A program made the position numbers and the translations under genes. A stretch of DNA of 31,176 bases from an uncultured Flavobacteriaceae bacterium (GTDB taxonomy: Bacteria; Bacteroidota; Bacteroidia; NS11-12g; UBA955), in NCBI GenBank assembly GCA_964446075.1, contig CAYUNO010000001.1, forward strand, positions 1 through 31,176, written 5' to 3'. The notes beneath the pieces were generated by a model. The model saw nothing but the letters and a program-made list of their open reading frames with translations. It had not been told where the DNA came from and searched no databases. This document shows positions 11,417 through 19,094 of this stretch, piece by piece (the first letter of the stretch is position 1; each line of letters starts with the position of its first letter).

Positions 11417-14400
11417 TTATTTATCTTTTGGTTTAAGTAGATAAAATACTTGTTTTTGAAAACGTTTGCTACGAGTGGCGCTTTTATATTCTATATAAAT
11501 TACGTAGTAATCTTCGGGGTATGGAATTCCTTGAAAATCAATGCCATTCCAATGGCCATTTAGTTCAGTACTTGTAAATATACTCTCACCCCATCGATTA
11601 AAAATTTGTATCATAGCCTCGTTTACACCGTAAACATGCCATTGATAATTGTCGTTTAATCCATCATTGTTTGGTGTAAATGCAGTTGGTAGAAATATCA
11701 AGCAAGTATCAACAAAACAAAGGTCAGAAGTTTTAAAATCCAAGCAACCTGCATCGTTTTTAGCAAAGAGTGTAATGGTATTTTTGCCTGGTTTCAAACT
11801 CCAATTTAAGGATTTTGGTTTGTCAATGTTATTAGTAATATCCCATATTGAATCGTTCAATAGCCACTGATATTTAGTTCCCCCGATGGAAATATTATAA
11901 ACATTTAATGGCAAATCCAAGGTACTATAACAATTTGAAAATCTTGAAGGTGGGAAGGTGAAGCCTGCTATGATTGAACGAAATCCTGGAATGGATATAG
12001 TTGTATCACTTGAGCAACCTGTTATTGAGTCAATAGCGAAAACGCGATAAGAGTTTCCAGAAATCCCCCAAAAAGTATCATTTTGAGAAAGAAGATTTGG
12101 GTTCCAAAATGTTTTTAAGGGATTGTTATTAATGGATTGCAGTTTAATAAATCCGGAGGCTCCAAAACAGGAGGAATCACTAGTGGTAGCAATAAATTTC
12201 AATGGGGGATGAACTATGTATTTAATGTAAGCAGTATCTGGTTGGGAACAACCATCATTGAGAAAAACGGAATAAATAGTATCATTTAAAGCCGTTATAT
12301 ATGATTTTGATCCAGTCTGATTGTGGCTCCAGGAATATGTATAATTACCTGTTCCCCCTTTGCCTTTTGTTTCCAATAGAGTAATATCTCCTTTACATGC
12401 GAACTTTGTTTGAAATTTGGCTGAGGCAAACTGGAGGGTATCTCTAATTTGTACGATAATAGAATCTTTTGCAATGCAATTTCCATTGATTGTTTTGTAG
12501 AATAATTTTTTTGAACCACTGCCTAAATTAAAGGTAGATAAACTAGAACTTGCTGGGAAATTTGAGGATGAATAATTTCCACCATAAGGTATTGCGAAGG
12601 AATCGATTTTAAGAGTATTTAAACAGAATACTGGATTTTTGTCTTTCCATGTAATTTTAGGCATAGAATCAATAGTAACAACGAATGTATTTAAACAACC
12701 TTTATCGGATGTATAAAATATATTATATTGATAATTTGGATTAAGAGAAATAGGAGATAAATAGTAAGTACTTGAGACTTTACTAATTCCAGGCCCTGAG
12801 TATTTATCATTAAATGCCCAGGATTTTAGAGGGATTTTTGGTGAGTTAACACAAAAGGATGTGTCTTTATAAGTAATTGGTTTATCGAGAATATTAATTA
12901 TTATATTATCGCTACAAGTATTCTTTTGGTATGAAATTAGGTATAATCCAGGATTTTCATTTTTGGGATAAATGGTAGCATTTTTTACAATACTACCAGA
13001 CCATATGCCGTTGTAAACAGAAGTTTTGAAGACCGAACTGAGCCGAATTGAATCTTTATCTCCGCAGACTTCAACGGTATCCGAACTTTGAATTTTTGTA
13101 CTAATAATATGTATTATTTTGGTGTCGGTGCATTTCCCTGAATTGAATATTAGTGTATCAATACCGTCATTGCCATTGGTCCAAGAGCAATCATAGAATG
13201 AAGAGAGTGGGTTAGATATACCCTTTCCTTTCCATGAAAAAGAAGTTCCATGTCTTAGGTTAATTAAGGGGTAATTTGTTTGAGAGGGGCAGAGAGTGTC
13301 ATCTTTACCGGCATAGCATGGCAAAACCGTTAACAGGGTTGTGTCTTTGCAACCACCTGCTGCGTTAAATATTATTGCTTTTGTACCTGGCCCACCCATC
13401 ACACTTGGATTATACCAACAATAGTATGAATTAATTAATCCAGGGAAGTAATTAGGATAAATCCCTTTAGGTGAAAAACTAAGTGTATCTAAGGTTCTCG
13501 ATTCACAGGTTGTGTCTCTATCGGGTACTACGGGTTTAGAAACTACTATGGTTTTATTAGAATTACATCCTTTCCAAGAATAGGTTAAAACAAAAGTACC
13601 TGCAGAGTCAGGTGTAAAGTTACCGTTTGAACTCACTTTGGGACCTGTCCATGTTCCACCCATCGGTGCATACCAATATAACGGAATTGCTTTTGTACCT
13701 GGACAAAAAACATTTTCCAAATTCCACGGTATGGTTACATTAACCAAAACGGTATCAGCACAATCACCAATTTGATACCATACTTTACAAATGCCATAAT
13801 TTCCTAGGGGTTTGAATTCACCTGTGGTTGTATTTACTATCCCTTTACCATACCATTTTCCACCTGGAGGGTTTGCTTGTAGATTAAAATTATTTCCGTA
13901 ATAACAGACGTCTGTATCTTTTTGAGCCGAAGGCGGATTGATAACCGTTATGGTTATAGAATCTGAACCTGGAACAGCTACCCCGTCTGAGACTAATAAT
14001 TTAATTTTAACAGTGTTACTAGGACAAATGCGGTAAGGCATATTTCCTGAAGGATTAAAATTGGTCCATTGAAATTTGTAAGCCGAAGTATTGCCACCAG
14101 TGACAACAGAGGATAAGTAGACACAGCCTCCTTTGCAAATAGTGTCTTTATTAATTGATAGTTTAACTTTAATAGGGCAATCATTAATTAAAATACTAAG
14201 GCTTGATTTTAGGGGATAAATGGAATCGCAGTAATCTCGATAGCCATGTGTATGCGTTAAAAAGTAGTTGGCATTAGTAGTAATTCCACCATTAATTTTA
14301 ATAGTAAAATATGTTCCGAAGTCTTTATTAGAATCTGTACAAACAATACTCGTAATGGGGAGTGTTGGAGAGAAAGCTGTATTATTGATGTTAAAAGAAT

Positions 14401-14905
14401 CGACCGCAATTTTCATATTGCTTTTTACTTGCAGTACGGAATCTCCACAGGTAGGTTTGTTAACCCAAGTGAAGTTCGCCGCTGTTGGTTTTTTTATTGT
14501 GTTGATGATCTCCGCTTCCCAACCAAAGCAAGCAACGGATTTGTCTGAAATAAAATGTAAGGTTATAAAACTATCAGTAGAACTCACAGTACCTGGGCTT
14601 GTGTTACCGCTGTATTTTCCTATTAATGGACTATTGGTATCTTTACCATTAAATATTCTGAGCACATCATTATCTTGCTCAGTACAAAAACTAGAGAATT
14701 TTAATGTTATGGAAGTGGCACCGGGTAATGATAGTTTTAGTGTATAGTTTTCATTGTGGTCATAATCGCCTTTTATTTTTCCCTTATCGGAGTCTGTTAT
14801 TTTCCCCTTGCATATTCTAAAAGAACCATTTTGTTGAGCAACAATGGTTTGGGCATTGAGATTTACGCCTGAAATTAGAATCAGTATGTAAAAGAAAAAT
14901 CTCAA
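11417..14905 (-). CDS. T9SS type B (CHU_C, gliding-motility-associated C-terminal domain) surface protein with an N-terminal CUB domain and Cys-containing tandem repeats
   Basis: Signal peptide; CUB-like segment (YDHNENYT...ITLKFSSFCTEQDNDVLRIFNG...LIGKYSG...LHFISDKSV...GWEA); C-terminal LPTAFTPNNDGLND...IFNRWGE...WNG. The TTG start overlaps the upstream TGA (TTGA). Confidence 0.85.
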   Translation of the reverse strand: MRFFFYILILISGVNLNAQTIVAQQNGSFRICKGKITDSDKGKIKGDYDHNENYTLKLSLPGATSITLKFSSFCTEQDNDVLRIFNGKDTNSPLIGKYSGNTSPGTVSSTDSFITLHFISDKSVACFGWEAEIINTIKKPTAANFTWVNKPTCGDSVLQVKSNMKIAVDSFNINNTAFSPTLPITSIVCTDSNKDFGTYFTIKINGGITTNANYFLTHTHGYRDYCDSIYPLKSSLSILINDCPIKVKLSINKDTICKGGCVYLSSVVTGGNTSAYKFQWTNFNPSGNMPYRICPSNTVKIKLLVSDGVAVPGSDSITITVINPPSAQKDTDVCYYGNNFNLQANPPGGKWYGKGIVNTTTGEFKPLGNYGICKVWYQIGDCADTVLVNVTIPWNLENVFCPGTKAIPLYWYAPMGGTWTGPKVSSNGNFTPDSAGTFVLTYSWKGCNSNKTIVVSKPVVPDRDTTCESRTLDTLSFSPKGIYPNYFPGLINSYYCWYNPSVMGGPGTKAIIFNAAGGCKDTTLLTVLPCYAGKDDTLCPSQTNYPLINLRHGTSFSWKGKGISNPLSSFYDCSWTNGNDGIDTLIFNSGKCTDTKIIHIISTKIQSSDTVEVCGDKDSIRLSSVFKTSVYNGIWSGSIVKNATIYPKNENPGLYLISYQKNTCSDNIIINILDKPITYKDTSFCVNSPKIPLKSWAFNDKYSGPGISKVSSTYYLSPISLNPNYQYNIFYTSDKGCLNTFVVTIDSMPKITWKDKNPVFCLNTLKIDSFAIPYGGNYSSSNFPASSSLSTFNLGSGSKKLFYKTINGNCIAKDSIIVQIRDTLQFASAKFQTKFACKGDITLLETKGKGGTGNYTYSWSHNQTGSKSYITALNDTIYSVFLNDGCSQPDTAYIKYIVHPPLKFIATTSDSSCFGASGFIKLQSINNNPLKTFWNPNLLSQNDTFWGISGNSYRVFAIDSITGCSSDTTISIPGFRSIIAGFTFPPSRFSNCYSTLDLPLNVYNISIGGTKYQWLLNDSIWDITNNIDKPKSLNWSLKPGKNTITLFAKNDAGCLDFKTSDLCFVDTCLIFLPTAFTPNNDGLNDNYQWHVYGVNEAMIQIFNRWGESIFTSTELNGHWNGIDFQGIPYPEDYYVIYIEYKSATRSKRFQKQVFYLLKPKDK
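12450..13920 (-). repeat. About seven tandem repeats of about 70 aa (protein level) in the T9SS protein; boundaries approximate
   Basis: Each unit runs from a (V/F/T/L)C to a xxC(xD/NT)-like end. Most carry a GGxWxG-like core: PPGGKWYGKG, PMGGTWTGPK, FSWKGKG, NGIWSG, KYSGPG and PYGGNYS. Confidence 0.65.
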
Positions 14906-15384
14906 GGATGCTTTATAATATAAATTGGTTTTGAAATGGCAATATTAGACCACTGATGAGCACGATCTTTTAAACGGATTTTGAATCGAGTTGACTCAAT
15001 TGGGGCGTTACTTAATCGAAACAGATTTTTAAGGGTAAGTTGAAGGTCACCATTAATTTTAATTTTTTGATGGATTGGCGCCAGCGGTGGAACATGATAA
15101 TAGTCGGGTTTTTGTAATCGATCATCCCATACTTCCATGGAAAAGGAATCGGCTGATAATTGTCCTAAGTCGCCATCATTATCTGTATATTGAACAATCA
15201 GGGTAAGTTCATCCGTAAATTCGCGTACTGTATCCATAGAGTTATCAAGGATTTTAATTTCGGGGATGGTTGAAAGGTTAGGGCTTTTGTCCTTGCAGGA
15301 TATTAATAAGATGAGTGATATTATTAAAATTAATTTATATAACTCTATAGATGTTCTCATGGCTTTACTGAAATTTAACCGCAA
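14902..15384 (-). CDS. Hypothetical lipoprotein
   Basis: Lipobox LLISC-KDK and beta-rich mature part; overlaps both neighbours (20 bp and 4 bp). Confidence 0.75.
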   Translation of the reverse strand: MRLNFSKAMRTSIELYKLILIISLILLISCKDKSPNLSTIPEIKILDNSMDTVREFTDELTLIVQYTDNDGDLGQLSADSFSMEVWDDRLQKPDYYHVPPLAPIHQKIKINGDLQLTLKNLFRLSNAPIESTRFKIRLKDRAHQWSNIAISKPIYIIKHP

Positions 15385-19076: not shown

Positions 19077-19086
19077 TCGACTAAAA

Positions 19087-19094
19087 CAAATATA
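19087..19094 (-). promoter_or_regulatory. -7 element TATATTTG for the six-gene operon
   Basis: Exact TAnnTTTG 10 nt before ATG 19076; no clear -33 TTG at canonical spacing. Confidence 0.6.

Follow-up and report, generated by a model that had tools for sequence, protein, structure and literature searches.

Six co-oriented genes were analysed on a 31,176-nucleotide (nt) stretch of DNA from an uncultured Flavobacteriaceae bacterium (assembly GCA_964446075.1, contig CAYUNO010000001.1; this whole stretch is referred to as the window). The genes, numbered g1 to g6 from 5' to 3', all lie on the minus strand and were taken from an open reading frame (ORF) listing in which coordinates refer to the whole window. 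Their arrangement is conserved far beyond chance in related genomes, and all six products are predicted to be exported: four are lipoproteins, one is a substrate of twin-arginine translocation (Tat) and one is a type-B substrate of the type IX secretion system (T9SS). The genes and the features within them are the following, with lengths in amino acids (aa).

18159-19076, minus strand: g1, 305 aa; predicted lipoprotein with lipobox LTAC (C20); helical, DUF4214/phycobilisome (PBS)-linker-type, with two R-x-P-T-x-x-E-type motifs
17684-18172, minus strand: g2, 162 aa; predicted lipoprotein with lipobox IASC (C19); short DUF4214-type helical protein
16333-17679, minus strand: g3, 448 aa; Tat signal; alkaline-phosphatase-superfamily fold
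17653-17673, minus strand: twin-arginine motif of g3, K3-R4-R5-Q-F7-I-Q9; family consensus MKRRxFIK
15365-16324, minus strand: g4, 319 aa; predicted lipoprotein with lipobox LTGC (C27); N-terminal PSCyt1-like domain (~55-170) and C-terminal Ig-like beta-sandwich (~180-319)
16097-16117, minus strand: putative haem-attachment motif of g4, C70-A-N72-S-G-C75-H76 (CX4CH); C70, C75 and H76 invariant
15911-15916, minus strand: M137-P138 of g4, candidate distal haem ligand (the 'MP' of PSCyt1 domains); invariant
14902-15384, minus strand: g5 as the listed ORF (TTG start, 160 aa), or 14902-15360 with an ATG start (152 aa); predicted lipoprotein with lipobox LISC (C30 in the 160-aa numbering)
11417-14905, minus strand: g6, 1162 aa; signal peptide, CUB domain, ~900 aa of Cys-paired repeats and CHU_C sorting domain
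14513-14767, minus strand: CUB domain of g6, residues 47-131 (Pfam CUB)
11465-11692, minus strand: T9SS type-B C-terminal sorting domain of g6, residues 1072-1147 (PF13585 CHU_C, TIGR04131)
19087-19094, minus strand: -7-like element TATATTTG, fitting the Bacteroidota -7 consensus TAnnTTTG; within the 91-nt gap 5' of g1 and 11 nt before the g1 ATG

The junctions from g1/g2 to g5/g6 measure -14, +4, +8, -20 and -4 nt with the listed ORF starts, exactly as an earlier note on this DNA had given them, and the TTG start codon of g6 overlaps the TGA stop of g5 (TTGA). An ATG at 15360, separated by a 4-nt gap from the g4 stop, is the more likely start of g5 than the TTG at 15384 inside g4 because the signal peptide is then more typical of a lipoprotein, and the fourth junction is therefore probably +4. 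The six genes probably form a single transcription unit. The -7 element that the earlier note had listed with them is present; however, the window contains 32 copies of TAnnTTTG where chance alone predicts 38, and as it is no commoner than chance TATATTTG is no evidence by itself and serves as a positional hint only. A scan for sigma-70 promoters and terminators gave nothing better than shuffled sequence. The G+C content of the module (window 11001-19000) is 0.30-0.39 compared with 0.43-0.45 in the housekeeping genes just downstream (9001-11000).

Conservation of the six-gene arrangement

Relatives were counted as 90%-identity protein clusters, which numbered 1126 for g3 and 788 for g4. All of these were unnamed or 'hypothetical', and none had a precomputed Pfam domain. 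Most came without a taxon name; those with one were nearly all metagenome-assembled genomes (MAGs) of Bacteroidota, Bacteroidia or Flavobacteriales, a single g4 relative being tagged Sphingomonadales. With each GTDB species represented by a single genome, a scan yielded 36 loci, all from MAGs, with the labels Flavobacteriales, Saprospiraceae/Saprospirales, Chitinophagales, Cryomorphaceae and Sphingobacteriia. The record titles of loci L004, L012, L018 and L005 name MAGs of 'uncultured Rhizobium sp.', 'uncultured Comamonadaceae bacterium' or 'Chitinophaga pinensis' and are probably taxonomic mislabels in the source records.

When the six window proteins were compared with 39 loci by tblastn, all six turned up closely spaced and in unchanged order in every locus with a sufficiently long contig. 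Identity to g3 ranged from 74% down to 45% and that to g6 from 25 to 48%, g3 being the most conserved of the six, and the tight order was also kept in relatives beyond ~45% g3 identity. The flanking genes of the window (lpxB, a cytolysin-like gene and a 213-aa ORF) were found in 0 of the 39 loci. All-vs-all clustering of the neighbourhood ORFs gave a similar picture: the six families were present in 34-43 loci each (34 for g5) and the next commonest neighbour in 9. Since the flanking genes differ between loci, the six genes constitute a discrete conserved module. The conserved co-occurrence that the earlier note had proposed to look for was thus found, in almost all of the loci read, those of the 36 species as well as metagenome contigs, for a set that as a whole has no curated annotation; at least four of its protein families lie outside the threshold of any Pfam or NCBIfam model. 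Even in much more distant g3 relatives the gene sizes are still ~300, 170, 440 and 300 aa, with a further ~140-aa gene in the single locus whose contig extends that far.

A few loci depart from the full arrangement. In L017, a Chitinophagales MAG, only g1-g2-g3 are found and an unrelated two-component system follows where g4-g6 would be, L042 and L043 have g1-g5 and lack g6, and in L040 all six genes are followed directly by a PorP_SprF gene. Based on these variants, g1-g3 look like the core of the module, g4-g5 like its usual extension and g6 like a frequent but dispensable addition; g6 may accordingly be an associated rather than an integral part.

Two further observations concern individual loci. 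In L017 (5404-7596, 11408-13140) a 730-aa PKD-repeat protein with a CHU_C-like C-terminus is encoded upstream on the same strand, with an unrelated 219-aa gene (7687-8346) between it and g1. In L001 (GCA_038141325.1, 11598-16191) the g4 orthologue is called as fragments of 89 and 136 aa and that of g6 as fragments of 362 and 767 aa, which suggests frameshifts caused by pseudogenisation or assembly error.

The alkaline-phosphatase-like protein g3 and the cytochrome-like protein g4

The AlphaFold2 (AF2) model of g3 had a mean predicted local distance difference test score (pLDDT) of 85.9 and a predicted template-modelling score (pTM) of 0.85, with disorder confined to the N-terminal 33 residues. 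A Foldseek search of the PDB with this model resulted in 416 matches at E<=1e-3, the best at E 4e-9, all of them in the alkaline-phosphatase (AP) superfamily. The families matched were S1 sulfatases, LtaS/LtaP, NPP, PafA, phosphonate monoester hydrolase and MCR-1, at template-modelling (TM) scores of ~0.42 and identities of 10-14%. The g3 family profile gave one weak sulfatase match among the PDB sequences (E 0.0028), in which D-x-C-H and P-E-C-G-R of g3 were set against a sulfatase helix and the metal-ligand motif G-D-H-G-R. Residues G49, G50, R52, Q54, E55, H130, D315, C317, H318, D332, E360, G362, R363, D380 and H381 are invariant in the family alignment, and position 361 is Cys in the clade of the window and His in Saprospiraceae (consensus PEHGR). 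The candidate metal ligands D315, H318, E360, C/H361, D380 and H381 appear to be retained. By motif alignment, as distinct from superposition, the first-strand Asp of the superfamily seems to be replaced by the invariant Gly-Gly, and no conserved Ser, Thr or Cys nucleophile is found in the g3 family at the expected helix start before H130.

The earlier note had called g3 DUF1501-like, a description that was borne out for the Tat signal and for the fold, as the AP superfamily is the clan of DUF1501, but not at the level of family membership, and in profile comparison the link is weak although the motifs are colinear. No Pfam or NCBIfam model matched g3 of the window even at E<=10, DUF1501 (PF07394, gathering score 27 bits) included. 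The DUF1501 model gave weak matches in 3 of 33 orthologues (best E 0.012), and the best of the more distant relatives, P0296, reached 26.4 bits. Alignment by hhalign with three annotated, bona fide DUF1501 proteins encoded on plasmids (Singulisphaera pSINAC01 and one of Chondrinema) gave E values of 1.1e-3 to 2.2e-3 at a probability of 13-20%. In the extended alignments the motifs of g3 and DUF1501 were colinear, namely RR/RR, FAGGVRQQES/MNGGxSQxDTF, VDGCH/WDxH, PECGR/GEFGR and YDHS/GRDH, as was a pair of C-terminal helices (TDIVPTIADIFGI / HDLHATILHLLGI). A search of 1.84 billion representatives with the g3 profile recovered just 828 proteins at E<=1e-3, indicating that the profile falls short of the bulk of DUF1501. 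Among 55 more distant full-length relatives Pfam matches were to Phosphodiest (18), Sulfatase (18), Metalloenzyme (10) and DUF1501 (8), the other three being matched at least as often as DUF1501; the DUF1501 link is to this extent weaker than the earlier note had it. By these comparisons g3 represents an AP-superfamily family without a name, which is similar to DUF1501 in its unusual motifs and fails every threshold test for membership in it; weakly, the alignments point to a distant sister family of DUF1501.

Some distant g3 relatives occur together with cytochromes. The 396-aa protein P0278 (L045 9282-12644, L046 8820-12458) adjoins a 1120-aa protein in which LVIVD repeats accompany 11 CXXCH motifs, and a 1212-aa PSCyt1-TPR protein is encoded nearby. 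In P0353 (997 aa) weak matches to cytochrome c7/c3 were found at the C-terminus. Judged from P0278 and P0353, the AP-fold clade of g3 would be recurrently linked to c-type cytochromes, in differing architecture.

In the AF2 model of g4 (pLDDT 86.8) an N-terminal domain with helices at residues 58-70, 87-94, 121-127 and 147-163 is followed by a beta-sandwich (182-318), and the topology of the former reads helix-CX4CH-...-MP-helix. The signature C70-x-N72-x-x-C75-H76-D-G-x-F-E-P-D-F-R is invariant or nearly so. Residues C70, N72, C75, H76, D77, G78, F80, E81, P82 and R85 are invariant in sets of 32 and 49 orthologues, and the same sets show little or no variation at R111-V-x-P114, S120, M137-P138 and W161-I-x-x-G165. 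The CX4CH spacing is also kept in distant g4 copies (CGNVQCH, CAVGGCH and CLVRGCH in L040, L042 and L044).

The relationship of this domain to cytochromes was evaluated with curated models and by profile alignment. TIGR03806, which describes the second haem domain of a dihaem cytochrome, matched g4 of the window at E 8e-6 (25 bits against a cut-off of 313) and 40 of the 49 orthologues at E<=1. Alignment by hhalign with bona fide PSCyt1 domains, taken from L046 and from annotated PSD1/PSCyt proteins, gave probabilities of 79.5%, 67.6% and 86.7% (E 1.5e-5, 5e-5 and 4.4e-6) over the C-terminal half of the domain only. This half carries the signature V-P-G-x-x-x-x-S, M-P and W-I-x-x-G-A, the residues of which are invariant in the g4 family, the MP pairs of g4 and PSCyt1 domains being only approximately in register when the hhalign output was read by eye. 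The proposal of a PSCyt1-type cytochrome was thus supported in these two comparisons. It did not extend to the motif that defines PSCyt1, CXXCH, which is C-x4-C-H in g4 and all of its orthologues including the distant ones, and the PSCyt1 Pfam model (PF07635) matched neither g4 nor any of 32 orthologues at E<=10. The g4 profile returned noise only from the PDB sequences. We infer that the N-terminal domain of g4 is a monohaem domain of PSCyt1-like type, the haem motif of which is longer by two inserted residues. The strict conservation of CX4CH and of the Met-Pro pair argues for a functional haem site, and a conserved CX4CH variant of the PSCyt1 domain is documented in the aligned orthologues.

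The helical lipoproteins, g5, g6 and the export signals

At the family level g1 and g2 appear to be helical proteins of the DUF4214/phycobilisome-linker type, in agreement with the helical repeats and the DUF4214 relationship of which the earlier note had spoken. DUF4214 (PF13946, gathering score 23.2 bits) matched 24 of 35 orthologues of g1 (best E 2.6e-5) and 33 of 35 of g2 (best E 4.2e-6), and PBS_linker_poly matched 10 of 35 g1 orthologues (best 5.6e-7). The window copies were less readily recognised, g1 matching DUF4214 below the gathering score (16.8 bits, E 0.0072) and g2 having no Pfam or NCBIfam match even at E<=10. Nearly all of the best matches of the g1 profile in the PDB were phycobilisome linkers, all of them sub-threshold, and the g2 profile gave noise only from the PDB sequences. 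Compared with each other by hhalign, g1 and g2 aligned in their N-terminal regions at a probability of 83% (E 8.7e-6), partly over the signal peptide, and on this alignment are paralogues at their N-termini.

Sub-threshold Pfam matches to PSCyt2/DUF1549 in 7 of 35 g1 orthologues and to PSD1/DUF1553 in 14 of 35 g2 orthologues (best E 0.02-0.03) bear on a reading of the two genes as the DUF1549 and DUF1553 halves of a split gene. This reading found no support, with hhalign probabilities of 2-4%. Both alignments landed on a part of DUF1553 that is DUF4214-like, its C-terminal R-x-P-(T/S)-x-x-E segment, and the shared DUF4214-like motif explains the scattered matches. Matches of the g4 and g5 hidden Markov models on g1 and g2 were attributed to shared lipoprotein signal peptides and disregarded. 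A distant g1-like protein in L044 has a 'faint' precomputed match to DUF1800 (PF08811).

The family motifs of g5, a Y-x-D-x-x-G-D-x-G loop and D-R-x-x-x-x-S-N, are invariant and suggest a small calcium-binding beta protein. No relative of g5 was found in Pfam or NCBIfam (E<=10) or by the PDB profile search, and a relationship to the C-terminal domain of g4 was ruled out as only the signal peptides aligned. The description of g6 as a CUB-containing T9SS type-B protein was confirmed, both domains scoring above the curated cut-offs. The CUB domain matched PF00431 at E 1.1e-10 (42.2 bits against 21.4) and, among solved structures, the CUB domains of neuropilin-2 and PCPE-1 at E ~1.6e-7. The sorting domain matched PF13585 CHU_C at E 2.2e-12 (47.4 bits against 27) and TIGR04131 at 39.4 against 35 bits. 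There are 28 conserved Cys in regularly spaced pairs, the best-conserved parts being the CUB domain and residues 401-480, and a weak SprB-repeat match was obtained. No PorP/SprF-like gene lies beside g6 in the window, and among the related loci only L040 has one.

The export routes named in the earlier note agreed with family conservation for all six products. The lipobox residues C20 (g1), C19 (g2), C27 (g4) and C30 (g5) are invariant across ~30-35 orthologues each. The N-terminus of g3 reads MMKRRQFIQK, with R4 and F7 invariant, and the Pfam TAT_signal model matches some members and relatives. In g6 an N-terminal Sec signal peptide is combined with the type-B sorting domain. The sequence PYILPSGRLFA at g3 residues 22-32 (~17584-17616, minus strand) lies inside the predicted Tat signal region and is nearly invariant in the family, which is unusual for a cleaved signal; it may belong to an uncleaved anchor, a recognition site or the mature N-terminus.

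In Capnocytophaga the optimal lipoprotein export signal has been set experimentally as C-X-K-(D/E)2-X (Lauber et al. 2016, PMC5080379). In the four lipoprotein families of the module the residues after the lipidated Cys include K at +3 in 30/35, 20/36, 16/32 and 17/33 members and D or E at +4 in 30/35, 30/36, 18/32 and 23/33, while E or D leads at +5 in g1, g4 and g5 and not in g2. The four families therefore appear to carry a surface-export-like C-x-K-(D/E)2 signal at the family level. If this signal works, g1, g2, g4 and g5 face outward alongside g6 while g3 goes to the periplasm.

Comparison with known systems, rival explanations and neighbouring genes

Modules in which DUF1501 is combined with PSCyt1/PSCyt2(DUF1549)/PSD1(DUF1553) occur in Planctomycetes, Verrucomicrobia and some Bacteroidota (Kamneva et al. 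2012, PMC3542564). Few types of gene pair have expanded as much in Planctomycetes and Verrucomicrobia as this one, and the module is regarded as conserved, exported and probably related to electron transfer, with its function unassigned (PMC3542564, PMC5615132). In overall logic the six-gene module looks like a distant multi-gene relative. In both, a Tat-exported AP-clan enzyme with GG-x-x-Q-x-(D/E), E-(F/C)-G-R and D-H motifs lacks the nucleophile of its fold, the enzyme gene adjoins a gene for a PSCyt1-type domain and helical domains in which R-x-P-(T/S)-x-x-E motifs occur, export is common to all products and extra binding domains are often attached. The differences are that the window proteins fall below the threshold of all four Pfam models and that the haem motif is CX4CH. 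The haem domain resides on a lipoprotein of its own downstream of the enzyme, whereas in the known modules it forms the N-terminus of an upstream fusion of ~800-1000 aa. The counterparts of the helical domains are two small lipoproteins of the DUF4214 type with a DUF1549/DUF1553 probability of 2-4%, and g5 and the T9SS CUB protein are added. Taken as a whole, the interpretation in the earlier note was supported in part. Canonical DUF1501, DUF1549, DUF1553 and PSCyt genes were absent from 46 metagenomic loci, apart from the PSCyt1-TPR protein of L046.

Other known systems share single parts with the module. DUF1800-DUF1501 gene pairs are widespread (PMC5122149) and are alike in layout in that a helical protein stands immediately upstream of a Tat DUF1501-type enzyme, here g1 and g2 (305 and 162 aa) before g3; they differ in that two lipoproteins make up the helical part here and a haem protein accompanies them. 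The SO2930/HNE_0200 dihaem cytochromes (TIGR03806) resemble the N-terminal domain of g4 in their second haem domain, whereas g4 has one haem-like motif in place of two, the CX4CH spacing, a lipid anchor and an Ig-like C-terminal domain. Solved AP-superfamily enzymes (S1 sulfatases, NPP, PafA, LtaS and MCR-1) have the core alpha/beta fold of g3 with the C-terminal metal-ligand motif in register, but g3 is set apart by a TM score of ~0.42, 10-14% identity, the Gly-Gly in place of Asp, the lack of a conserved nucleophile and the Tat signal. SprB-type T9SS type-B adhesins share with g6 the CHU_C domain, a very long repeat architecture and, in one related locus, the PorP/SprF neighbour; g6 differs in its N-terminal CUB domain, its much shorter length and its fixed linkage to a set of enzyme and haem lipoprotein.

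The explanation that we favour, with slightly better than even confidence, is that the region encodes one conserved six-gene envelope complex. The six proteins would assemble at the outer membrane, g1 and g2 would be helical scaffolds holding g3, and the haem centre of g4 would donate or accept electrons or serve as a sensor. The substrate, macromolecular or particulate and external to the cell, would be bound by g6, perhaps together with the Ig-like parts of g4 and g5, and would then be modified by g3. A more specific version of this complex is possible but unlikely as a whole, namely a surface machine of Bacteroidota in which four surface-flipped lipoproteins, one with a CX4CH haem, would work with the T9SS CUB protein and a nucleophile-less AP-fold metalloenzyme in redox-coupled processing or sensing of a substrate.

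Several results weigh against the favoured explanation. The curated DUF1501, PSCyt1, DUF1549 and DUF1553 models match no window protein, the hhalign probability of 13-20% between g3 and DUF1501 is weak, and against three bona fide PSCyt1-DUF1549-DUF1553 proteins g1 and g2 reached probabilities of only 4.2% and 1.8%. CX4CH is a non-canonical haem c motif, and haem attachment in g4 is putative. A Foldseek search with the whole g4 model returned Ig-like sandwiches at E>=1.5e-3 and no cytochrome among the top matches, because the Ig-like domain dominated the search. Moreover, the module is separable, as in L017 with g1-g3 only and L042 without g6. The window copies of the surface-export signal are poor matches, CRKQTD (g2), CESNNS (g4) and CKDKSP (g5), with only CKIEEK of g1 coming close. 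There is also a topological tension in that g3 would be sent to the periplasm by Tat with no obvious way outward, while its partners are of the surface type.

A nutrient-scavenging system of the Sus or phosphatase-like type was considered, in which g3 would be a phospho- or sulfo-ester hydrolase that frees phosphate or sulfate from organic matter, dissolved or in particles, caught by g6 and the lipoproteins, and the haem-like domain of g4 would be structural or non-redox. The AP-superfamily fold of g3 would suit such a role, its nearest solved structures being sulfatases, NPP, PafA and phosphonate monoester hydrolase and its distant relatives matching Pfam Phosphodiest and Sulfatase, as would the export-signal-like residues of the lipoprotein families, which are those of Sus-like surface lipoproteins, and the origin of the host MAGs, largely lakes and activated sludge according to record titles. 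On the other hand, a hydrolase of this type is at odds with the invariant Gly-Gly for the first-strand Asp and the missing conserved nucleophile, both read from the motif alignment and not from superposition. No TonB-dependent transporter or SusD-like gene travels with the module, and the strictly conserved CX4CH and Met-Pro of g4 speak for a functional haem site. We consider this explanation doubtful. Rather improbable is an adhesin or gliding cassette built around g6 as a SprB-like T9SS type-B adhesin, with g1-g5 as accessories for its secretion, anchoring or modification, by analogy with sprC-sprD-sprB-sprF of Flavobacterium johnsoniae. It would account for the CHU_C/TIGR04131 sorting domain and the weak SprB-repeat match, for the great length of g6, its repeats and the binding domain at its end, for the PorP_SprF gene directly after g6 in L040 and for the presence of g6 with g1-g5 in 34 loci. 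It does not fit with g1-g5 occurring without g6 in L042/L043 and g1-g3 alone in L017, nor with the lack of a PorP/SprF gene beside g6 in the window and most loci, and neither an AP-fold enzyme exported by Tat nor a haem lipoprotein is a known component of T9SS cargo handling. Furthermore, g3 is better conserved than the other five genes (identity 45-74%, compared with 25-48% for g6), which suggests the enzyme and not an adhesin as the core.

Mere adjacency of six unrelated envelope genes, or of ORFs that are partly spurious, could draw on the -7 motif being statistically uninformative. All six are nevertheless conserved families with invariant residues, and their order and tight spacing are kept from ~74% to ~45% g3 identity and beyond while the flanks differ. 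The synteny data effectively refute this reading, and we give it next to no weight.

With ~1000 protein clusters from Bacteroidota of lakes, sludge and sediments, the module carries part types of the DUF1501/PSCyt systems on separate small genes tied to a defined surface protein. If that relationship is true, each part could be expressed, deleted and assayed separately, which would make an old functional question testable. If the surface-machine version of the envelope complex holds, the module would represent a minimal, dissectable form of the PSCyt/DUF1501 systems, which have been functionally unassigned since 2004-2012. It also raises a topological puzzle, in that a Tat enzyme of the periplasm is encoded next to lipoproteins whose signals are of the surface-export type.

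The wider context in the window is ordinary housekeeping (SurE, LpxB and an AIR-synthase-like gene) together with a few unrelated items. Directly upstream of the module and co-oriented with it, 19800-20936 (minus strand) encodes a lipoprotein of 378 aa that strongly matches the Thiol_cytolysin (cholesterol-dependent cytolysin, CDC) domain (E 9e-32), and 19168-19809 (minus strand), overlapping it by 10 nt, a 213-aa lipoprotein-like ORF of no family. Together these look like a CDC-like pore-former pair, which is not kept beside the module in any related locus; membership of 19168-20936 in the transcription unit was ruled out on that account. At 1415-2830 (plus strand) a 471-aa protein has an FGE-sulfatase domain (E 5.5e-19) and no gldLMN-like genes follow; this domain type occurs in the gliding/T9SS lipoproteins GldJ and GldK. 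A response-regulator receiver is fused at 3319-4872 (minus strand) to PglZ, likewise a domain of the alkaline-phosphatase clan. The isolated gene at 24761-25936 (plus strand) encodes an AAA_14 and DUF4143 ATPase of a type common in mobile or defence contexts.

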